Shown: positions 1 to 9,670 of the stretch, one piece after another
Layout of the letters: each line of letters opens with the position of its first letter
How positions within the stretch are numbered: position 1 is the stretch's first letter
NCBI GenBank assembly: GCA_001940845.1
Contig: MSGV01000017.1
Location: 9,864-73,863, forward strand
Length of the DNA: 64,000 nt
Source: Christensenellaceae bacterium Phil7
GTDB taxonomy: Bacteria > Bacillota > Clostridia > Christensenellales > CAG-138
Reading direction: 5' to 3'
Program-made: the position numbers and the translations under genes
Notes under the pieces: model-generated
Seen by the model: the letters and a program-made list of their open reading frames with translations, nothing else
What the model was told of the DNA's origin: nothing
Databases searched by the model: none

Positions 1-142
1 ATCCGGAAAATGAGGATGCGCCGTCCTGAGAAAATCCGTAGATCAATGCATAGATCAGCAGGTCAGTGCCCTTAAGCCCCAATTCCGATATCATCCAGCC
101 CTGGATGCAAATATAGCTATCGTTTTTTATTAAATCGTTCAT
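1..142 (-). CDS. Phage replication initiator / HTH protein, N-terminal part (runs off the window)
   Basis: Manual translation MNDLIKNDSYICIQGWMISELGLKGTDLLIYALIYGFSQDG resembles the IQGWM..LxLKG..LLxYAxIYGFSQ start of Firmicutes phage replication proteins; AGAAGGA RBS upstream. Confidence 0.7.
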   Translation of the reverse strand, partial: MNDLIKNDSYICIQGWMISELGLKGTDLLIYALIYGFSQDGASSFSG

Positions 143-251
143 TTCCTTCTCCATCAGTATGATTTCAGCCGCGCACAGACAATCCATAAGGATAACTCCT
201 TTTTTGTTTTGTGCGCCAACACCCTATCCGCGCACGGCTGCAACCATCAAC

Positions 252-584
252 CTATGCCGTCCAGCATCTTGCCTTAAAAATTGCCACACCACCAAGCCAA
301 TAGCCAAGCATGTGCAATCCTCTAGGTGTTAAATAAAAATCTGCGTATGATACGCCAGCGATTGGATTATGCCTGATGCCGCCATGATCTGCATATCCCA
401 AACGGTACAGCTGCGTCCATGTCGTATCCGGCAGCCGCACCCGTATAGTGTTGTATGGCATATAAAAAATCATGGTATTGCGGCTGTAATGCGGTCGCTT
501 TGTGTTTGGTCTGACAAACTTGTCATCAAAGCCGATACATTTTTGCATTGCAGCAAATGCTGCATCATCCGGACAATACATCAT
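252..584 (-). CDS. Phage hypothetical protein
   Basis: Start re-assigned to ATG 584 after a GGAGGTG RBS; TGATG overlap with the upstream ORF. Confidence 0.6.
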   Translation of the reverse strand: MMYCPDDAAFAAMQKCIGFDDKFVRPNTKRPHYSRNTMIFYMPYNTIRVRLPDTTWTQLYRLGYADHGGIRHNPIAGVSYADFYLTPRGLHMLGYWLGGVAIFKARCWTA

Positions 585-865
585 CACACCTCCCCGATAA
601 CTATCAGGAGCTGAGACGGTATGCGCTGCGTAGTGTCTGCAAGCGCGATCAAATCCTCGCCATCGATGTCGACATCCAGCAGCAAGCTTATTGATTTGCC
701 ATCTATGCTGATCGGGCATCCACTGCAAAACCACTTATGCACATACGATGTATGCCGCTGGTCTTTTGGCAAATACAGATAATCACTTAAGGCTCGATGC
801 AAGATTGCTGCGCGTAAAATAAGCTCCGGATGCAGCTCTCTTACTTTTTTTGCTTGTCTAGCCAT
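584..865 (-). CDS. Phage hypothetical protein
   Basis: 93 aa ORF with GGAGGT RBS directly after the recombinase stop. Confidence 0.6.
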   Translation of the reverse strand: MARQAKKVRELHPELILRAAILHRALSDYLYLPKDQRHTSYVHKWFCSGCPISIDGKSISLLLDVDIDGEDLIALADTTQRIPSQLLIVIGEV

Positions 866-879
866 ATATTTTTACCTCC

Positions 880-1695
880 CTACCATGTAACTGCCGCATC
901 CATGGCGGCTTGCTGCTGCGCCTGAGATAAGCGCAGATATATGCTCGTGGTCGTTACGCTGCTATGCCCTAAAATATCCGCAAGCAGCGATAGATTGTTA
1001 TTGTTTTGTAAAAAATTGATCGCAAAGAGATGGCGGAATGAGTGCGGATGCGCATTTTCCGCCGGAATGCCATATCGCTGCGCATGTACACGCAGCATCT
1101 TGCGTATGCCGCCATCGGTCATAGGTTTGCCGTGCGCATTGCGGCAGATCAGATCATCGTGTGCCAAATTGTCAAATACCGATATCACATCCTCCGATAG
1201 GCGGCGCGGAAAGATGATCGTGCGCTGTTTGCCCTTGCTATACACATCCATACGCCCTCTATCCAAATCGCTGCGTCTTACCAGCAGCAGCTCGCTCACG
1301 CGCATCCCCGTCATTGCCAACATGCGATAATAGATCGCCCACCTGATATTGCCATCCTCGACCAAACCATCGATAAGGCGGCGGTATTGGTCAGCCGTTA
1401 TAACATTATCGATGGAGTGCGTGTGCTGCCGCTTGACCGACTTGACATCGCAGACAATACCTCTAAAGGAGCAATATTTGCGCATAGCACATAGCCGCTG
1501 ATTGACCGTTGCAGCACTCCTGCTGCGGGATAGATGATGTTTCCATCTCACGATCGTTGCCTTGCACAGCTCGTCCGCCCCAGCAAATGCATGGTAGCTT
1601 GCAACGGCTGCCATATAGCTGCTGACAGTGGCATCAGCCGCCTCGCTATCGATCAAGTACTCCCGGAAGGCATCCATATCATGTTGTATCTCCAT
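880..1695 (-). CDS. Tyrosine recombinase (XerC/D-like), internal to the prophage
   Basis: Catalytic motifs GMRVSEL (R), KGK (K), HPHSFRH (H-x-x-R) and LGHSSVTTTSIY (H, Y). Confidence 0.92.
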   Translation of the reverse strand: MEIQHDMDAFREYLIDSEAADATVSSYMAAVASYHAFAGADELCKATIVRWKHHLSRSRSAATVNQRLCAMRKYCSFRGIVCDVKSVKRQHTHSIDNVITADQYRRLIDGLVEDGNIRWAIYYRMLAMTGMRVSELLLVRRSDLDRGRMDVYSKGKQRTIIFPRRLSEDVISVFDNLAHDDLICRNAHGKPMTDGGIRKMLRVHAQRYGIPAENAHPHSFRHLFAINFLQNNNNLSLLADILGHSSVTTTSIYLRLSQAQQQAAMDAAVTW

Positions 1696-1727
1696 CGCTT
1701 ATAGCCCTCCTCAAAGCCCCTAAAAGC

Positions 1728-1755
1728 ACTACCGATAATAGCTGTTATCGGTACT
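1728..1755. other. Putative tyrosine-recombinase site (11-6-11, dif-like)
   Basis: ACTACCGATAA-TAGCTG-TTATCGGTACT; the arms are inverted repeats with 10/11 identity, 33 bp upstream of the recombinase start. Confidence 0.65.
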
Positions 1756-1784
1756 ACAGGCATTATTACCTCCACCATTCATCA

Positions 1785-1886
1785 TCAGTTGACCCCGTTT
1801 AACGCCGCCTCGATCAGGCAGGCGATTGGCGCTAATGCAGCGCCAAGCAATACTGCGAAAATAAGTGCTATTAATCCCGGTTCCAT
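1785..1886 (-). CDS. Small hydrophobic phage peptide (33 aa)
   Basis: MEPGLIALIFAVLLGAALAPIACLIEAALNGVN, preceded by AAGGAGAGGG; below the ORF-track length cutoff. Confidence 0.5.
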   Translation of the reverse strand: MEPGLIALIFAVLLGAALAPIACLIEAALNGVN

Positions 1887-1901
1887 GCTTGTCCCTCTCC
1901 T

Positions 1902-2216
1902 TTATGCAATTTGATTTCCGTTGCGGTCATGCAGCATATATCCGCACCACTTAGCGAGTAGCTTGCAAGCGTCCTCCGGCTCCATAAGCTCCATATTGTT
2001 ATCGGCATCAGCCGGAAATTCTTCCGGCACTATAAAAAGCTGCATATATAAATTCCCGCTCATTCCCTGGTCGAAGAGCTCTTGGAGAGCATCAGCGTAA
2101 CCAACCTTGCCGTCTTTGCGCTTGGGGAAAAACCTCCAGCTAACAGGGTTCTCAGGACAACTGTCACAGTCAACATATCGTCCGCTATATCTATCCATAT
2201 CCATACCTCCAATCAA
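1902..2216 (-). CDS. Phage hypothetical protein
   Basis: ORF in the co-oriented early operon; GGAGGT RBS near the start. Confidence 0.55.
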   Translation of the reverse strand: MIGGMDMDRYSGRYVDCDSCPENPVSWRFFPKRKDGKVGYADALQELFDQGMSGNLYMQLFIVPEEFPADADNNMELMEPEDACKLLAKWCGYMLHDRNGNQIA

Positions 2217-2221
2217 ATCTA

Positions 2222-2827
2222 CTAAGCAAACATGTCGTTATCATCCTGATCTTGTATTTCTAATTCCCCTCCGTCAGTGCCCGGACAAGGTATAACCATG
2301 CCGCAAACAACATCGCCCTCCGGGAAATTCTCATCGCACACAGATCCCAAATATACAGGCGGCTCATCAATAGGCGTGTGCGAAAAGAATAAAGATGTGT
2401 TTTCTGCATCCATATCTGCGATCGCCTGAACCGGAATTGCAAATGTTGAATATGCAGCATCTTCTGGGCTGGCAGCTCTGACCAGCGCTTTTGTATGGCA
2501 GCAGTCACATTCGACGAGATATAATCTGCTCTCGCAATAATAAACTTTTAGCTCGCACCCGCACCGATAGCAGCTGATGCCGGACCTAGATGATAAATAA
2601 TCCCATCCTCCATCCCTAGCATCAAATATCTCGTGGCATATTTGATCGACGTTAGCAGTGCAAGCATCCATCAATATTTGCCAAAACTTTTCTCGCTCCG
2701 ATAGAGCTGTAAAATTTTGCCTATATTTGTTATTGCTTTGCCCAGGTCGCTGCAGCTTATCGCTTGCATCATCCACCAATTTTTTGCAATGCTTTAAAAT
2801 CGGCTCAATGTCTACGTATTTAGCCAT
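2222..2827 (-). CDS. Phage hypothetical protein with a zinc-ribbon (Lar-like) segment
   Basis: CYRC...CDCC cysteine pairs; MAKYVD start typical of phage early genes. Confidence 0.55.
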   Translation of the reverse strand: MAKYVDIEPILKHCKKLVDDASDKLQRPGQSNNKYRQNFTALSEREKFWQILMDACTANVDQICHEIFDARDGGWDYLSSRSGISCYRCGCELKVYYCESRLYLVECDCCHTKALVRAASPEDAAYSTFAIPVQAIADMDAENTSLFFSHTPIDEPPVYLGSVCDENFPEGDVVCGMVIPCPGTDGGELEIQDQDDNDMFA

Positions 2828-2833
2828 TTTTTA

Positions 2834-3331
2834 TCACCCCGCAGTAACCTGATCGAAAATGCCAGGGCTGTCAAACCCATCAAACAGATCCTCTGCAACA
2901 ATGTGCCCATGCTCGTCCAATAGGATACATGCAGCATCATCGCCGTAGATGTCGCTCTCCATAAGGTAAAATTTATATCCGCCGATTACCCGATGGTCGA
3001 TCGTATGCCATGTGCCGCAGTGACCGGGTATACATAGGCCGGATGTGTCTGCGCTGATTATGCCGTCCTTTTTGCTGGTCGCTATCTCTCCGGCACAGGC
3101 TGCATACCCCGCCAGATCTACAAAGCTGTCCGCCTTATCGCCTGCCTTAATGCGCGCAACTTTAAGCAGTGCCAGCATTATTGCAACATCCTTCGCCGTA
3201 AATTTCGTTCCGGTGTAAGCCTCCCACAGCTTACCTATGAGCGCAAAACAATCCTCCGGCTTGCCGTAGTCGTGCTCGCGCTGCCCGCACACGCACTTCT
3301 CTGCCTCTTTCAAAATCTCTGATCTTCGCAT
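2834..3331 (-). CDS. DUF6378-like phage protein with an extra C-terminal domain
   Basis: R.EIL.EA.KCVCGQRE.DYG.PED.F..I..LW..Y and DSFVDLAGYAACAGE motifs; start at ATG 3331 after GGAGGT. Confidence 0.7.
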   Translation of the reverse strand: MRRSEILKEAEKCVCGQREHDYGKPEDCFALIGKLWEAYTGTKFTAKDVAIMLALLKVARIKAGDKADSFVDLAGYAACAGEIATSKKDGIISADTSGLCIPGHCGTWHTIDHRVIGGYKFYLMESDIYGDDAACILLDEHGHIVAEDLFDGFDSPGIFDQVTAG

Positions 3332-3555
3332 GGTTGTCCAACCTCCAATTCGTATTTTGCCCATCTGGTTTTTTCGCCAAAGCGATTTTTGCCATCAACT
3401 ATTTCGCGGCGTATCTTATAGCCCATTTGCTTAAGGTCACAAATCCTTGCACCCAAGCGCATGATCCCGTATTCCTGCAGCGCGTCCATCGGCGTTATAG
3501 AGCCGTACACCTGCATGTGCCTTAAAACTTGCTCGTTTTGCGTCATAAGTATCAC
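3310..3555 (-). CDS. Phage winged-HTH protein
   Basis: TQNEQVLRHM..YGSITPMDAL.EYGIMRLGARICDLK..GY motif. Confidence 0.7.
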   Translation of the reverse strand: MILMTQNEQVLRHMQVYGSITPMDALQEYGIMRLGARICDLKQMGYKIRREIVDGKNRFGEKTRWAKYELEVGQPCEDQRF

Positions 3556-3591
3556 CTCTCTTGCCCTGTGCTTGTCCGTCAGGGACGGAGC

Positions 3592-3774
3592 TCATCCGTC
3601 CGCCCCGCTGCATTCTGCGGCGGAAGCCGACAGTGCGTCCAGTGCGTTGCGAGTGATTCTGCGCAATATTGCATCAATCTCATCTTGAGTCTTATCTCTG
3701 CAATAATCGTCACAGATCCTTATCAGCGTGTTACCTATCTTAAATTCCTCGACCACATGTCCGGTATCGATCAC
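3592..3774 (-). CDS. Small phage protein (60 aa), candidate recombination directionality factor
   Basis: GTG start after AGAGGGGGTG; IGNTLIRICDDYCRDKTQDEIDAILRRI; first gene downstream of cro; RDF role is inference only. Confidence 0.55.
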   Translation of the reverse strand: MIDTGHVVEEFKIGNTLIRICDDYCRDKTQDEIDAILRRITRNALDALSASAAECSGADG

Positions 3775-3802
3775 TATTAACACCCCCTCTACGCATTAAG
3801 TC

Positions 3803-3831
3803 TATTTATGCGGTTATTTGTCCTATTACTC
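3803..3831 (-). promoter_or_regulatory. Sigma-E-like (mother-cell sporulation) promoter candidate
   Basis: GAGTAAT-14 bp-CATAAATA, a partial match to the B. subtilis sigma-E consensus (T/G)(A/C)ATA(A/T)(A/T)-14-CATACA(A/C)T. Confidence 0.4.
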
Positions 3832-3892
3832 AGGAACTGATGCAATATCCGTAACTAACAGTTTTCGAATTAGTTTCTGCTTTCATTTTTTG

Positions 3893-4093
3893 TTAACATC
3901 GCAGGTCGCCGTCATCTTCAAATAACTCATACACAGAACAATTTAAAATCTGCGCAATGCGCTTGATCGTAGAAATAGAAGGATTTCTCTTTCCGCTTTC
4001 GATGTTGCTTAATGCGGGCTGCGATATATTAGCTTGTTTAGCAAGCTCGCATTGTTTTATGTTGCGAAGTTTTCGTATAGCTTTTATTCGCAT
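3893..4093 (-). CDS. Cro-like XRE HTH regulator
   Basis: IKQCELAKQANISQPALSNIESGKRNPS HTH; ATG 4093 with TAAGGAG RBS; divergent from cI. Confidence 0.88.
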   Translation of the reverse strand: MRIKAIRKLRNIKQCELAKQANISQPALSNIESGKRNPSISTIKRIAQILNCSVYELFEDDGDLRC

Positions 4094-4124
4094 GTTAGTC
4101 TCCTTATCGACTTTTCCTATTGCT

Positions 4125-4153
4125 ATTATACAGCAGATTTCAGGGCATGTCAA
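4125..4153 (-). promoter_or_regulatory. Consensus sigma-A promoter of the cro (lytic) operon
   Basis: TTGACA-17 bp-TATAAT on the minus strand. Confidence 0.8.
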
Positions 4154-4177
4154 TAGCTATATGAAAAGATTTTATTA

Positions 4178-4206
4178 TTGATTTTTATTTCTGTTAGCTA
4201 TAAAAT
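4178..4206 (+). promoter_or_regulatory. Probable cI (lysogenic) promoter
   Basis: TTGATT-17 bp-TAAAAT. Confidence 0.5.
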
Positions 4207-4233
4207 AATTATAGAACGAAGAAAGGAATATTT

Positions 4234-4839
4234 ATGAATCAAATAAAGAAAATAAGGGAATCCAGAGGAATATCTCAAAAGGAACTGGCAATTGTGATGA
4301 AAACAGCGCAGCCAACTGTTTGTAACTGGGAAAACGGAACCCGTGTCCCGTCTCACAACAATGTCCTTAAATTAGCCGAATACTTCCATGTATCTGCGGA
4401 CTATATAATGGGTTTAGAGAAAGATGAACCAAAGAAAGAAACTAATATTGGCTTTAGAATACCTATCTTAGGTCGCGTCCCTGCCGGTATCCCGCTGGAA
4501 GCAATAGAGGATATCATCGGCTATGAAGAGATCCCGCAGAGCTGGCTCGATGGGAACCGCGAATATTTTGCAACCAAGGTACAGGGCGATAGTATGTACC
4601 CTAAATACATCGAGGGAGACATCATCATCGTCCGCAAGCAGCCAACCTGCGAAAGTGGACAAGACTGCATCGTGTACGTCAACGGATATGACGCAACATT
4701 AAAAAAGGTTATTATGCTGCCCGATGGCGGAATACAGCTCACGCCCATAAACACTATGTACTCGCCAAAAACTTATCGTGATGGAGATGAGCCGATAAGC
4801 ATTGCTGGTGTTGTCGTTGAAATAAGACGAAAACCATAA
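4234..4839 (+). CDS. CI/LexA-like phage repressor (XRE HTH + S24 peptidase)
   Basis: N-terminal HTH, IPILGRVPAG cleavage loop, GDSMYP catalytic Ser, ATLKK catalytic Lys. Confidence 0.93.
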   Translation: MNQIKKIRESRGISQKELAIVMKTAQPTVCNWENGTRVPSHNNVLKLAEYFHVSADYIMGLEKDEPKKETNIGFRIPILGRVPAGIPLEAIEDIIGYEEIPQSWLDGNREYFATKVQGDSMYPKYIEGDIIIVRKQPTCESGQDCIVYVNGYDATLKKVIMLPDGGIQLTPINTMYSPKTYRDGDEPISIAGVVVEIRRKP

Positions 4840-4841
4840 AT

Positions 4842-5570
4842 TTGATGGAGAGGAATTTTATAAGAAAGCGCATATATGGAATTGTTTCCGCTTCCGATGA
4901 GAAGAGTAAAAGCGGAAGTATTTATAACTTGATAATGATGTTTTTTATCATTATCAGCCTAATTCCACTTGCGTTTAAAGCCGATAGCACATTTTTCTTC
5001 ATTCTGGATAAGGTTTGCGTCTCGGTCTTTATTTTGGATTATGCGCTCCGGCTCATAACAGCCGATTATAAGTATGGTAAAAAATCCATTTTATCATTTG
5101 TTAGATATCCATTTTCATTCATGGCAATAATTGATTTGATCTCAATATTACCATCCTTGACAGTATTAAATAACGGCTTTAAAGTTTTGCGAATAATGCG
5201 CATGGTTAGGGCATTAAGAGTTCTTAGGGTTTTTAAAGCGGCAAGGTATTCCAAAAGCATCAGAATTATAGCGGCTGTGTTTAAAAAATCAAAGGAACCG
5301 CTTACGGCTGTAGGCACTTTGGCAATTGCATATGTGCTGATCTCTGCGCTTATCATCTTTAATGTTGAGCCTGATTCGTTTAATAGTTTTTTTGATGCGG
5401 TTTATTGGGCAACCGTTTCCCTGACAACTATGGGATATGGTGATATTTACCCGGTAACGACAGCCGGACGCATCGTGACCATGATTTCTTCGATATTCGG
5501 CATAGCAATCGTTGCGCTGCCATCGGGCATCATAACCGCCGGATATATGAGTGAAATAAATAAAAATTAA
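4842..5570 (+). CDS. Voltage-gated-type potassium channel (6TM ion transporter) carried by the prophage
   Basis: S4-like Arg repeat LRIMRMVRALRVLRVFKAAR; pore helix and filter YWATVSLTTMGYGDIYP. Confidence 0.9.
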   Translation: MMERNFIRKRIYGIVSASDEKSKSGSIYNLIMMFFIIISLIPLAFKADSTFFFILDKVCVSVFILDYALRLITADYKYGKKSILSFVRYPFSFMAIIDLISILPSLTVLNNGFKVLRIMRMVRALRVLRVFKAARYSKSIRIIAAVFKKSKEPLTAVGTLAIAYVLISALIIFNVEPDSFNSFFDAVYWATVSLTTMGYGDIYPVTTAGRIVTMISSIFGIAIVALPSGIITAGYMSEINKN

Positions 5571-5584
5571 AGGAGTAACCAACC

Positions 5585-6334
5585 ATGAAGTCAAAACCAA
5601 TAACCATCTTTTTGTTGTCCGCACTTGTTATGCTCTCTCTCGCATTCTTCGGATGCTCATACTCCCCCGAACTGCTTTTTACATCCGATCCAACCTCAAC
5701 ACCTGAGCTGACCTCAACGCCTGAGCCGTCCTCAACGCCTGAGCCGTCCTCAACGCCTGAGCCGTCCTCAACGCCTGAGTCGTCCTCAACGTCTGAGCCG
5801 TCCTCAACACCTGAGCCGTCCTCAACGCCTGAGTCAACTTCAGCTCCGAAACCGACTTCAACCCCCAAGCCAACTGCAACCCCGGAACCAACTTCAACTT
5901 CGAAGCCGACTGCAACCCCCAAGCCAACTGCAACTTCGAAGCCGACTGCAACTCCGAAGCCAACTTCAACCCCCAAGCCAAAGCCAACTCCAAAGCCGAC
6001 TGCAACTCCGAAGCCAACACACTCTTCCGATACTACCGTTGGCGACTTAGATTATACAGAATGGCAAGGAAAGTATGTTGGCAGCAGCGAGAGTGATAAA
6101 TACCATACTCATGGGTGCAGGGCAGGCAATAATATTTTATTATCCAATGTCATTTGGTTTAAATCAGCCGATGATGCTAAATCCCACGGTTATAAGCCAT
6201 GCGGCATATGTCTTGGTCATAAGGCTGAAGCCAGCTTGAGGAATGATTTCGCCGTTGCCATCGTGCCGCTCAGTACGCAGATCTTGGAGGTGCGCCATGC
6301 CATATTGCCTGTATGTAAGGAAATCGAGAGCTGA
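5585..6334 (+). CDS. Lipoprotein with a Pro/Thr stalk and a C-terminal Ada-like Zn-binding motif
   Basis: Signal peptide ending LAFFGC; STPEPS and KPTATP repeats; YVGS..SDKYH..GC...GYKPCGIC. Confidence 0.75.
   Translation: MKSKPITIFLLSALVMLSLAFFGCSYSPELLFTSDPTSTPELTSTPEPSSTPEPSSTPEPSSTPESSSTSEPSSTPEPSSTPESTSAPKPTSTPKPTATPEPTSTSKPTATPKPTATSKPTATPKPTSTPKPKPTPKPTATPKPTHSSDTTVGDLDYTEWQGKYVGSSESDKYHTHGCRAGNNILLSNVIWFKSADDAKSHGYKPCGICLGHKAEASLRNDFAVAIVPLSTQILEVRHAILPVCKEIES
5694..6018 (+). repeat. Two adjacent 18-bp coding tandem repeat tracts (STPEPS, then KPTATP/KPTSTP)
   Basis: ctcaacgcctgagccgtc units followed by aagccaactgcaaccccc-like units. Confidence 0.85.
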
Positions 6335-7886
6335 CGCGGAAGCCGAAGCCCGTGGCGAGGGAGAAACGCTGACGCGCCATATCAATGCATTGCTGGAGCT
6401 AGCAAAGCGGAGACAGCTTAATGTCACCAAAATATATCGTGAAATTGTCTCCGGCGATACCATTGCAGCCCGTCCGATCGCTCAACAGCTGCTGAACGAA
6501 GTCGGTCAAGGCATGTGGGATGGTGTGCTCGTTATGGAGGTCGAGCGTCTTGCTCGCGGCGATACCATAGATCAGGGCATTGTCGCTCAGACGTTCAAAT
6601 TTTCCGGCACTCGGATCATCACTCCAATCAAGGACTACGATCCGAACGATGAATTTGACGAGGAATATTTCGAATTCGGACTTTTTATGTCTCGCAGAGA
6701 GTATAAGACCATAAACCGTCGTCTCCAGCGTGGTCGCTTGGCATCGGTAAAGGAGGGTAAGTGGCTGGGCAGCTGCGCGCCTTACGGCTATGAGCGGGTT
6801 AAGCTTGCTAACGATAAGGGCTGCACCCTTGCTCCGTATCCGCCGGAGGCGGAGATAGTGACCTTGATTTTTAGTTTATATACTCAAGGCGAGCAACAGA
6901 ATGACGGCACATTTCGGCGATTGGGAGTATCTCTCATTGTCCGCAAATTAAATGAGCTGCGCATCCGTCCCAGGGTTAGCGAGCACTGGTCTCCTGCAAC
7001 GATAAGGGACATCCTTATCAACCCCGTATACATAGGTAAAATAAGGTGGAATTGGCGACATGGAGTAAAAAAGATGGTCGATGGGCAGGTGCGAGAATTT
7101 AGACCCAGAGCACCGATAGAAGATTGCATCTTGGTCGATGGTTTGCATCCCGCCATCGTTGACAACGAGACGTTTGCTTTAGCACAGGAGTACATGGCAA
7201 ATAATCCGCGCCAACCCGTACCGGCAAGGCAAAAAGTAATGAATCCCCTTGCAGGGCTTGTCATCTGCGCAAAATGCGGGCGCAGAATGACGCGCCGTCC
7301 ATACGGTGGACGGCAGCCGGAAACCTTAATGTGCAAGGATACCGCCTGTGATAACATATCATCAGCCTTGCACCTCGTGGAAGCTCGCATCCTCGATGCC
7401 CTGCGCAATTGGCTCGCTGAATACAAGCTGCAATTGGGCGAGGATTCCTCCGCCGCAAACAATAAAGTCGTTGCAGCGGCGAATGAAAAGGCGCTCCAGC
7501 AGCTAACCGCAGAGCACGCAACGCTTTGCAAGCAGCTCGATAATATTTACGATCTGCTCGAGCAGGGGATCTACACCACCGATCAGTTTCTCGATCGCTC
7601 CCGCAAGCTCTCCGAGCGCATATCTCAAAACGAGCATGATGCGGCTGTCTTAAATAAATCCCTTGCCGCCGATAAAATGCGAGAGATCAGCCGCCGTCAG
7701 CTTATACCCAAAGTAGAGCACGTGCTGGAGGTGTATTCATCCCTTCCATCCGCTAAAGCAAAAAACGATATGCTGAAAGAGGTGCTGGAAAAGGTCGTCT
7801 ACATAAAAACATCCGATGTGCGTAAAGGCGGATCGCCGGACAATTTTCAAATTACCATCTATCCCAAGTTGCCCAAAACCGATTGA
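6297..7886 (+). CDS. Large serine recombinase (phage integrase)
   Basis: YCLYVRKSR catalytic Ser, ERLARG, APYGY, recombinase domain, CAKCG..C..C zinc ribbon, coiled coil; ATG 6297 after GGAGGTG. Confidence 0.95.
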   Translation: MPYCLYVRKSRADAEAEARGEGETLTRHINALLELAKRRQLNVTKIYREIVSGDTIAARPIAQQLLNEVGQGMWDGVLVMEVERLARGDTIDQGIVAQTFKFSGTRIITPIKDYDPNDEFDEEYFEFGLFMSRREYKTINRRLQRGRLASVKEGKWLGSCAPYGYERVKLANDKGCTLAPYPPEAEIVTLIFSLYTQGEQQNDGTFRRLGVSLIVRKLNELRIRPRVSEHWSPATIRDILINPVYIGKIRWNWRHGVKKMVDGQVREFRPRAPIEDCILVDGLHPAIVDNETFALAQEYMANNPRQPVPARQKVMNPLAGLVICAKCGRRMTRRPYGGRQPETLMCKDTACDNISSALHLVEARILDALRNWLAEYKLQLGEDSSAANNKVVAAANEKALQQLTAEHATLCKQLDNIYDLLEQGIYTTDQFLDRSRKLSERISQNEHDAAVLNKSLAADKMREISRRQLIPKVEHVLEVYSSLPSAKAKNDMLKEVLEKVVYIKTSDVRKGGSPDNFQITIYPKLPKTD

Positions 7887-7904
7887 TAACATATTGGGTA
7901 TAAA

Positions 7905-8300
7905 GAAATTGCGCATTGGGAGATGCTTGGCACGATGATATTCCAATCGCTTCGCGGCGCATCGCTCGCCGATATCGACCGAGCCGGGCTGACCGGGTAT
8001 TACACCATCCATAATCATGGCGTATTCCCCTGCGATCCGAACGGAGTGCCCTTCACCACCGCCTATATCGCCTGCACCGGCGATCCGATCACCGATATAA
8101 CCGAGGATCTGGCAGCGGAGGAAAAGGCCCGCACGACCTATGAACATCTAATGAATCTTACCGATTGTGAGCAGTATCTTGCACCCCTGCGCTTCCTGCG
8201 CGAGCGTGAGATCGTCCACTATCAGCGCTTCGGCGAATGCCTGAATATCCTGCACGAAATGTATCCGAACAGGGATCAGAATAAGCTTTGCAGAAAATAG
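7905..8300 (+). pseudogene. cotJC: 3' part of cotJC (manganese-catalase family spore-coat protein), split by the prophage
   Basis: Frame reads EIAHWEMLGTMIFQ...GDPITDITEDLAAEEKARTTYE...LRFLREREIVHYQRFGE; N-terminus missing; in-frame TAA at 7887-7889. Confidence 0.85.
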
Positions 8301-9191: not shown

Positions 9192-9491
9192 ATGGCATTA
9201 ACAACTTTCAGCGTAAGGATGGACGAAAGCTTAAAACGGCAGTTTGATGCCCTTTGCTCCGATTTTGGAATGAATGCGACCACTGCGTTTAATGTGTTTG
9301 CCCGTGCTGTTGTTCGGGAAAAGAGAATCCCATTTGAAATCCAGGCATCCAGCTATTTCACAAGACAGAGTGGTATGCAGGCATTTATGGCACTTCGGGC
9401 ACAGGCAAAGGAAAACGGTGTGCAGGATTTGTCCCTTGATGAAATCAATGAGGAAATTCGTAAATCCAGATATGAAGAGGCTGCGGAGTGA
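9192..9491 (+). CDS. RelB/DinJ-family antitoxin
   Basis: FSVRMDESLK..FD.LC.DFGMNATTAFNVFARAVVREKRIPFEI ribbon-helix-helix motif. Confidence 0.88.
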   Translation: MALTTFSVRMDESLKRQFDALCSDFGMNATTAFNVFARAVVREKRIPFEIQASSYFTRQSGMQAFMALRAQAKENGVQDLSLDEINEEIRKSRYEEAAE

Positions 9492-9670
9492 TTTGTTATG
9501 CGGTGATTGATACCAATGTGCTGGTATCTGCACTCTTGTCAAGTCACGATAATGCCGCTACTGTTCAAGATGAAGCCTACCTTGTAACCGGAAACCTGAA
9601 ACATTTTCCTATAAAACCGTTTATCGTGACTGCACGAGAGTTTTTAGGCATTCTAAATGGAACCAAATAA
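9488..9670 (+). pseudogene. PIN-family toxin with a large internal in-frame deletion
   Basis: AVIDTNVLVSALL N-motif joined almost directly to the LVTGNLKHFP C-motif; only 60 aa. Confidence 0.75.

Follow-up and report, generated by a model that had tools for sequence, protein, structure and literature searches.

The locus described here raises the question of what becomes of a spore-coat gene that a prophage has cut in two: is the gene lost to its host, or is it put back together when the cell sporulates? The locus lies in a stretch of 64,000 nucleotides from Christensenellaceae bacterium Phil7 (assembly GCA_001940845.1; contig MSGV01000017.1, here C17, positions 9864-73863), which we refer to as the window and whose own numbering we use unless another contig is named. 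We have found that a large serine integrase has placed a temperate phage of ~32.9 kb inside the gene cotJC, at a codon that can be specified, and that both junctions are present. A sequence-only reading of the window had gone further and proposed that the prophage acts as a developmental switch for cotJC; on our analysis, sporulation-timed excision that rebuilds the gene is a proposal whose chances we judge to be even.

At the right end of the prophage, a forward-strand open reading frame (ORF; 6243..7886) encodes a large serine integrase of 529 amino acids (6297..7886, +), the likeliest start codon being ATG 6297, which is preceded by GGAGGTG. The protein matches the Pfam families Resolvase (PF00239, 9.5e-14), Recombinase (PF07508, 2.7e-17) and Zn_ribbon_recom (PF13408, 1.1e-7), and its PHROGs match is phrog_95 (6.6e-96), an integrase family. 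Among 47 relatives, S10 of the YxRKSR motif is nearly invariant, as befits the nucleophilic serine of a resolvase, and C324, C327, C346 and C351, the cysteines of the large-serine-recombinase zinc ribbon, are invariant. The integrase frame ends at TGA 7884-7886 and at once meets an in-frame TAA (7887-7889), after which it is open again from 7890 to TAG 8298-8300 (translation HIGYKEIAHWEML). This second frame matches the Pfam family Mn_catalase (PF05067, 4.3e-24) over profile positions 62-197 of 284 only, and because the match begins at profile position 62 the head of the gene is absent from 7890-8300. What remains is the 3' two-thirds of cotJC (7905..8300, +; 131 codons and a stop), 86% identical to the intact gene of one genome of the same genus. 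Among 16 other genomes of the genus that were searched, 14 have a match, mostly an intact cotJC, and the intact frames measure 195-231 amino acids from stop to stop (195 for the gene of genome G008), which makes this the short form of CotJC.

Intact relatives read LNDIGTEE(L/I)(A/S)HWEM at the corresponding position, and for that reason we place the break at the second Glu codon, GAA 7905-7907. It lies in the E-x-x-H motif, whose residues we take to be manganese ligands of CotJC. The right attachment (att) junction, attR (7882..7907, +), as delimited from the sequence and by comparison with its counterpart attL, consists of the phage arm ATTGATAACATATTGGGTAT (7882-7901) and the crossover region, in which AAGA 7903-7906 is the core common to attR and attL. 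The sequence-only reading had seen an integrase stop, an in-frame TAA and a headless cotJC frame, all of which the ORF reading and the Pfam matches confirm. It had started the headless gene at E-I-A-H-W-E-M; the break at the second Glu codon bears this out, with the refinement that the codons before it, I-G-Y-K, are phage DNA belonging to the attP arm (7882-7901) and mimic the I-G-T-E of the host. It was also right that ATG 7923 has no properly spaced ribosome-binding site, GGGAG abutting the codon directly without usable spacing. We note that the integrase stop codon sits within the attP arm (7882-7889). In close relatives a terminator hairpin of ~50 nt separates the integrase stop from the arm, and the window phage seems, from this comparison, to have lost that spacer. 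In another genome of the genus (G012, locus L008), cotJC is interrupted ~9 nt further upstream, just ahead of the GTEE codons; the interrupting DNA is unrelated and its contig stops 264 nt further on.

The left junction lies on another contig. An inverted repeat of the attR arm (7882-7901), with one mismatch, occurs at the extreme end of contig C6, and it was only through a search for the inverted phage arm that the adjoining stub of cotJC surfaced: on its reverse strand C6 starts with the eight codons LNDIGTEE, followed by the arm and then by phage DNA, which is attL. The two arms differ at 1 of 20 bases and are arranged as inverted repeats about the core AAGA. Since reverse-complemented C6 and the start of C17 share an exact overlap of 24 nt, the prophage can be read as reverse-complemented C6 followed by C17 up to attR. 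Joined conservatively on paper, the two halves of cotJC keep the frame (...DIGTEE-IAHWEM..., T-E-E-I-A), and the rejoined gene foreseen by the sequence-only reading shows no frameshift as far as the assembly reaches. Its expectation of a 5' cotJC at the other end of the prophage holds for the last eight codons of that half and fails, in this assembly, for the remainder of the 5' half and for cotJA and cotJB. Public contigs aligned over attL show neither a joint nor a loose end where the att core lies, a result that, coming from contigs, does not exclude rare attB or attP forms. The exact attL or phage arm has no match in public metagenome contigs and none in viral contigs, and a metagenome scan with the 3' cotJC half returned nothing above 86% identity and no intact cotJC from the same species.

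Is cotJC a chance victim or the habitual target of this integrase? Scanning species-representative genomes for the integrase gave 79 loci at 39-74% identity. A 3' half of cotJC lies on the same strand within 400 bp of the integrase stop in 27 of these, a 5' half on the opposite strand and within the same distance in 13, and in all 40 the break falls at residues 61-67. The remainder are made up of 30 loci that have room after the integrase and no adjacent cotJC piece (4 of them with pieces elsewhere in the locus), 5 without room after the integrase and 4 without the integrase end. Among viral contigs, a cotJC piece follows the integrase in 19 of 52, and 6 of the 20 closest viral relatives (L116, L117, L119, L124, L125 and L146) carry an attP that is intact, its right arm repeating the left one in inverted form. 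Five genome loci (L029, L032, L044, L045 and L065) hold both halves of cotJC, separated by elements of 2.9-6.6 kb that carry the integrase and varying non-phage cargo; in the four loci with complete halves the rejoined gene is open every time, at 204-234 amino acids, and aligns to intact CotJC across residues 1-177/182. In the complete genome of [Clostridium] asparagiforme DSM 15981 the halves are 45.2 kb apart. An unbiased sample of 80 metagenome loci with the 3' half contained 73 intact genes, 2 split at residues 62-63, 4 at a contig edge and 1 split at residue 26 beside a distant serine recombinase. On a further metagenome contig (L192:1193-2962), cotJC is split at residue 63 and the integrase relative upstream is in two pieces ~290 nt apart; judging from its sequence, this relative may be decaying.

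Where members of the family have settled outside cotJC, the genes they split are mostly other sporulation-linked ones. A LysM-GH18 gene (yaaH/sleL-like) is split near GH18 profile position 182 in eight loci (L053-L056, L060, L063, L077 and L078), sigK in two (L090 and L091) and dpaB, for dipicolinate synthase B, in one (L092); an asnB-like (asparagine-synthase-like) gene recurs as a target in three (L024, L026 and L030), where the C-terminal third of the broken gene lies beside the integrase relative. In a quick maximum-likelihood tree of the integrases (74 rows; L020, L051, L057, L058, L088 and L094 dropped), the window integrase falls in a well-supported clade of seven rows, all seven in cotJC, and the cotJC label changes 13 times over the tree, against 23.8 times in shuffles, with 0 of 500 shuffles as low. 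We count cotJC itself as expressed in the mother cell because the Clostridioides difficile operons cotJB2-cotD and cotF-cotCB depend on sigK, as a passage of PMC3789822 reports.

Selection on the pieces speaks to whether a split cotJC is still used. The 3' cotJC of the window shows no decay: its ratio of nonsynonymous to synonymous substitution rates (dN/dS) is 0.047-0.128 against intact relatives, the median among intact genes being 0.096, and most of this divergence may predate the insertion. Four Lacrimispora genomes (L. amygdalina, L068:5597-8542; G042, G043 and G045) carry cotJC in three pieces, divided by two different large serine recombinase elements, one of the window's integrase family at DIGTEE and one with a second serine recombinase between QYGGP and DGE. 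All the pieces are intact and together amount to 197 codons, the length of the uninterrupted paralogue that each of these genomes keeps. Pairwise dN/dS is 0.014-0.041 for the pieces (with synonymous sites from 0.6 to saturation) and 0.020-0.045 for the paralogue; purifying selection also acts on the two recombinases (0.05-0.09), whose divergence matches that of host genes. Such a pattern is what would be expected if the split cotJC were regularly rebuilt, and on this sequence evidence it fits that reading. The recombinase elements may be independent acquisitions.

Excision by a serine integrase would call for a second protein, and we present evidence for a candidate. Comparison of a 5.9-kb Lacrimispora element with its larger relatives left one shared small ORF besides the integrase. 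Its counterpart in the window, 60 amino acids long with a GTG start (3595..3774, -), is the second gene of the early lytic operon, directly after cro, and is our candidate recombination directionality factor on the strength of its conservation and of a complex model. In an iterated profile search across all fetched loci, in which copies ranged from 45 to 87 amino acids, the partner turned up in 42 of the 48 viral loci that offer 2.5 kb or more of upstream DNA (searched with a 10-kb flank) and in 35 of the 57 genome loci that do so (searched with a 4-kb flank), as well as in 11 loci with less room. It takes one of two positions. In 27 loci it precedes the integrase by 146-181 nt in the same orientation, and these integrases cluster with the small elements (2.9-6.6 kb in those for which both ends can be seen); in the window and other full prophages it lies 1.2-4 kb upstream on the other strand. 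The protein has no Pfam or PHROG family, and its Atlas neighbours are clusters labelled 'hypothetical protein' only.

When integrase residues 150-529 and the partner were modelled together, each as a 47-row alignment, the complex scored 0.78, the best control reaching 0.00; contacts agree between runs to at least 79%, and the pLDDT of the partner does not fall below 79. In calibration, 58 of 80 complexes with solved structures reached that mark, as did 2 of 110 mismatched pairs, figures that are approximate only, since our own alignments were used. The predicted contacts on the integrase lie at residues 323-328, 364-381, 476-501 and 512-527, and a conserved hairpin of the modelled partner pairs with the C-terminal strand of the integrase (515-527). 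Verified factors bind at the junction of the second DNA-binding domain (DBD2) and the coiled coil, often adding a strand to DBD2, according to an excerpt of PMC12286644; because that junction is the site reported there, the predicted contacts fit the binding of such a factor. A solved structure of the SPbeta integrase with its factor exists, as the same excerpt notes, and the high score may in part reflect the model's having memorised it. We therefore put the partner forward, on modelling grounds, as the candidate directionality factor of the integrase family. The position held by sprB in SPbeta, beside attL or attP, has no conserved small ORF common to the window phage and its close relatives, and ORFs of 73 and 78 amino acids that adjoin attL have no family match.

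What might switch such a factor on during sporulation is suggested by the DNA upstream of its gene. In the window, comparison of upstream regions picks out a promoter-like stretch (3803..3826, -) composed of ATAGGACAA (3826-3818) and CATAAATA (3810-3803), the CATA box being 36 nt before the start codon of the partner. Family-wide, 54 of the 61 distinct regions upstream of the partner contain a CATA box 18-48 nt ahead of the start codon, against a mean of 7.9 and a maximum of 16 in shuffles, and the same test applied to other genes of those loci that bear a Shine-Dalgarno sequence finds it in 131 of 919. GCATA is present in 38 of the 61 partner upstream regions versus 3.2% of control genes, and 6 of the 54 CATA boxes belong to a longer CATAGGACA motif. 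The small elements have GCATACATAT ~10 nt before the ribosome-binding site, and this matches 6-7 of the 8 positions of the Bacillus subtilis sigma-E -10 consensus, which is given as CATACA(A/C)T in a passage of a preprint (bioRxiv 10.1101/2020.04.13.040188). In C. difficile, as part of PMC3789822 describes, sigma-E and sigma-K have a common -10 and differ at -35 (ATA versus AC). We also considered ATAGGACAA as a SpoIIID box and dropped it, the fit to the published C. difficile consensus being only partial. We regard the promoter evidence, which comes from such sequence comparisons, as good for the integrase-partner family and weak for the window phage.

Taken together, these observations suggest the following model. 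The integrase inserted the phage through recombination between attP and an attB lying on the second Glu codon of the DIGTEE(I/L)AH motif. In the lysogen it would be expressed together with the cI-type repressor and would be unable, alone, to excise the prophage; excision would require the small partner (3595-3774, -), predicted to sit at the junction of the zinc ribbon and the coiled coil. With the partner gene placed immediately behind cro, lytic excision should follow once the repressor is cleaved in the SOS response. The gene could in addition be transcribed in the mother cell from a CATA-type (sigma-E/sigma-K-like) promoter, much as SPbeta leaves spsM; the mother-cell chromosome would then lose the prophage, cotJC would be rebuilt and the coat protein made, and the forespore would retain the prophage. 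The host appears equipped for sporulation, its Spo0A, SpoIVA and SigE all scoring above curated cut-offs. Support for this developmental reading is indirect and leans on the targets of the family, on the selection seen in Lacrimispora and on the predicted factor, whose gene has a CATA-type box upstream in most relatives. A broader claim, that this integrase clade and a partner with a mother-cell-type (CATA) promoter run programmed rearrangements across gut Clostridia, in cotJC, LysM-GH18 genes of cortex-lytic type, sigK, dpaB and asnB-like genes, we hold tentatively, and would put at somewhat less than an even chance.

The main rival to sporulation-timed excision is ordinary lysogeny, in which the conserved DIGTEE codons simply offer a widespread attB inside a gene that the cell can do without during growth, a safe harbour; cotJC stays broken and the phage leaves only upon SOS induction or spontaneously. 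We consider this a serious contender, if one that falls somewhat short of an even chance, and several of our observations favour it over the developmental switch. The candidate factor sits in the lytic operon directly after cro, under the cI/S24 switch, and control by SOS only would suffice to explain it. There is no convincing sporulation promoter at the window copy or across the prophage: the window partner has only CATAAATA and strict two-box patterns failed; in five of the six nearest relatives by integrase whose upstream region was read, AATA replaces CATA; across the family a full two-box match is found in only 19 of 61 upstream regions (shuffle mean 1.6, maximum 6); and a strict search of the whole prophage for B. 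subtilis-type sigma-E and sigma-K promoters, found 0 and 1 sites, no more than expected by chance, as shuffles average 0.7 and 2.5. The predicted complex has to be read beside the four false positives among the 11 bench-tested pairs of a virtual-pulldown study (an excerpt of PMC12286644). Permanent loss of cotJC may also be tolerated, because the genome holds a second, intact Mn-catalase gene and because C. difficile cotCB and cotD mutants have no significant coat defect, a mild phenotype, in the passage of PMC11222575 that describes them. Closely similar phages occur in different host species, a distribution more in keeping with recent infection than with a domestication of long standing.

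Against a mere safe harbour stands the fact that the integrase family repeatedly hits genes of the mother-cell sporulation programme (cotJC, LysM-GH18, sigK and dpaB), and that elements of 2.9-6.6 kb retain integrase and partner without phage genes. In Lacrimispora, purifying selection constrains the triply split cotJC no less than its intact paralogue, and the CATA box is far commoner upstream of the partner than in controls.

Considerably less probable than either is that the prophage is decaying and the gene dead, the 5' part of cotJC having been deleted along with cotJA and cotJB and the 3' part being a pseudogene remnant. In genome G008 the order is gltX, a cotJA-like gene, cotJB and cotJC, and cotJB lies upstream of cotJC in 70 of the 73 intact metagenome loci. 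Searches of Phil7's own assembly with the Pfam CotJB and CotJA profiles, and by tblastn with the CotJA, CotJB and CotJC N-terminus of a relative, found nothing convincing for any of the three; the assembly (2.21 Mb in 45 contigs) is 94.5% complete and shows the 5' half of cotJC only as eight codons, which weighs against the developmental reading too. A route to the cotJ head through gltX synteny was given up, as Phil7's own gltX (contig C45) precedes other genes. A simple account of the gap is nevertheless at hand: in three of four sequencing runs, public contigs carry on beyond the end of C6, by 880, 997 and 880 nt, and one of these contigs is 1485 nt long, under the 1521 nt of the shortest contig in the assembly, which would explain why the cotJ head is missing. 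The eight codons at attL are moreover in frame, the 3' part is open to its normal stop under the dN/dS given above, and the phage modules look complete. That the join is chimeric, an artefact of a metagenome-assembled genome in which the prophage is broken over two of 45 contigs, is barely credible when 93-98% of the words sampled over attR occur in four sequencing runs (contig data from the one study found to contain this DNA, no RNA run being listed), attL is spanned by independent contigs in 4 of 4 runs and dozens of other genomes have the same junction architecture.

The prophage as a whole looks complete in its gene content. The window contains its right-hand 7.9 kb (1..7904, assigned by PHROGs and Pfam matches). 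The 9.8 kb of C17 before the window encode a replication initiator, a methyltransferase, an HNH protein, the large terminase, portal, protease, capsid, connectors and major tail protein; the left end of C17 falls inside the tail module, and C6 holds the tape measure, Dit, a tail protein, the tail fibre and the holin. Taken over both contigs, this looks, by its genes, like a complete set for a temperate phage of siphovirus type. The sequence-only reading held that the prophage still has cI/cro and replication genes, and this is borne out, the replication initiator lying just left of the window. The cro-like helix-turn-helix (HTH) gene (3896..4093, -; HTH_3 5.8e-18, phrog_8) is preceded by a TTGACA-N17-TATAAT promoter, is divergent from cI and is followed by the early genes of the minus strand. 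The cI-like repressor (4234..4839, +; HTH_3 and Peptidase_S24 2e-26, phrog_4) has an S24 self-cleaving peptidase domain, and SOS induction is therefore predicted. Two cargo genes follow: an ion-channel gene between repressor and integrase (4842..5570, +; Ion_trans 7.5e-29), and a Pro/Thr-rich, lipoprotein-like ORF that overlaps the integrase start (5585..6334, +) and has a weak, sub-cut-off match to the Ada-type zinc finger (Ada_Zn_binding). Both (4842-6334) are probably expressed in the lysogen.

We note several further features of the prophage and its host. Among the prophage early genes is one for a 271-amino-acid protein of the tyrosine recombinase family (880-1695, -; PF00589, 3.5e-23). 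Beside attL on C6 (L148; 7985-15048, -) lies a block of ~7 kb that reads in the same direction as cotJC and encodes, inward from attL, two small ORFs, RadC, an SNF2 helicase, a PAPS-reductase/DUF3440 protein and a ParB-like protein; its first ORF is preceded by its own TTGATT-N17-TATAAT promoter, and the last two proteins are presumably an IbrA/IbrB-like pair. In the host DNA ~0.9 kb downstream of cotJC, the window has a RelB-type antitoxin gene and a short overlapping ORF (9192-9670). On contig C35 (L001; 60859-64467), a second large serine recombinase ends ~200 nt before an intact Mn-catalase gene of a different subfamily. We considered it as a relative of the window integrase and, at only 24% identity, treated it as unrelated; the adjacency may be coincidence or mark another element.

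In the literature covered here, bench work on split sporulation genes extends to few of them (sigK, spsM, spoVFB, spoVR, gerE and yabG), mostly in Bacillus and in few clostridia, and the window and its relatives show that, among uncultured gut spore-formers, cotJC is targeted very commonly. Now that the att site is precisely placed and both a directionality factor and a promoter can be proposed, the possible rebuilding of a coat gene by mother-cell excision in gut Clostridia becomes testable with cloned parts, and the sets of integrase, partner and att sites are candidates for site-specific genome-engineering tools. Were the broader claim for gut Clostridia true, full phages such as that of the window would use the module for two exits, SOS-triggered lysis and a harmless departure from a mother-cell chromosome that is in any case discarded.

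That cotJC can be a target is already in print. It is listed with gerE, yaaH and yhbH among integration targets, citing Abe 2013, in a passage of one preprint (bioRxiv 10.1101/2021.11.22.469490), and part of another mentions a skin-like element in cotJC of Laceyella sacchari (bioRxiv 10.1101/2022.02.25.481979). The C. difficile prophage phi027 adjoins a cotJC homologue, the relevant passage of PMC11222575 stating no split. Our literature search found no paper on the att site, directionality factor or excision for cotJC; Abe 2013 and the preprint's Table S3 lay outside it and may hold more. By integrase, the nearest named phages are phiIBB_Pl23 (52.6% identity), Dorea phage DO134P1 (44.5%), PhiS63 (38%) and SPbeta-like phages (30%). 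The first of these, a Paenibacillus larvae phage (NC_021865) and the nearest named phage in culture, has a putative attP (L149:2795-2840) with a host-like G-T-E-E string on the opposite strand between inverted repeats, which suggests, from its sequence, that this cultured phage of a bee pathogen also targets cotJC.

Among systems whose excision has been studied, the closest parallel is SPbeta in spsM of B. subtilis, as described in part of PMC4191935. The window prophage is likewise active-looking and lies inside a mother-cell sporulation gene; its integrase gene, like that of SPbeta (SprA/SprB), is immediately upstream of the 3' half of the target; and here too a small accessory protein would set direction and timing, with SOS and sporulation as two possible triggers. 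The two differ in target (cotJC, not spsM), in integrase sequence and in the place of the factor, since our candidate lies beside cro, 2.5 kb from the integrase, whereas sprB is next to attL; and sporulation excision has been shown for SPbeta whereas for the window prophage it is proposed from sequence only. The skin element in sigK of C. difficile, in which the integrase CD1231 is constitutive and the factor CD1234 is mother-cell-specific under sigma-E/SpoIIID control according to an excerpt of PMC5025042, provides the regulatory logic of our model, a constant integrase and a mother-cell-specific small factor. The sigK elements (SpoIVCA in B. subtilis; PhiS63 in C. perfringens, PMC3442830) use integrases of the same superfamily, that of PhiS63 being the 38% relative noted above. 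Unlike sigK, which is a regulator, cotJC is a structural coat gene, so that a role in timing is less obvious. Finally, the cotJC-splitting relatives of 2.9-6.6 kb, which keep the integrase and a small upstream gene, resemble gin in gerE of B. cereus (GirC/GirX; a passage of PMC5595907), and where gin is a minimal element of this kind, the window holds a full prophage.

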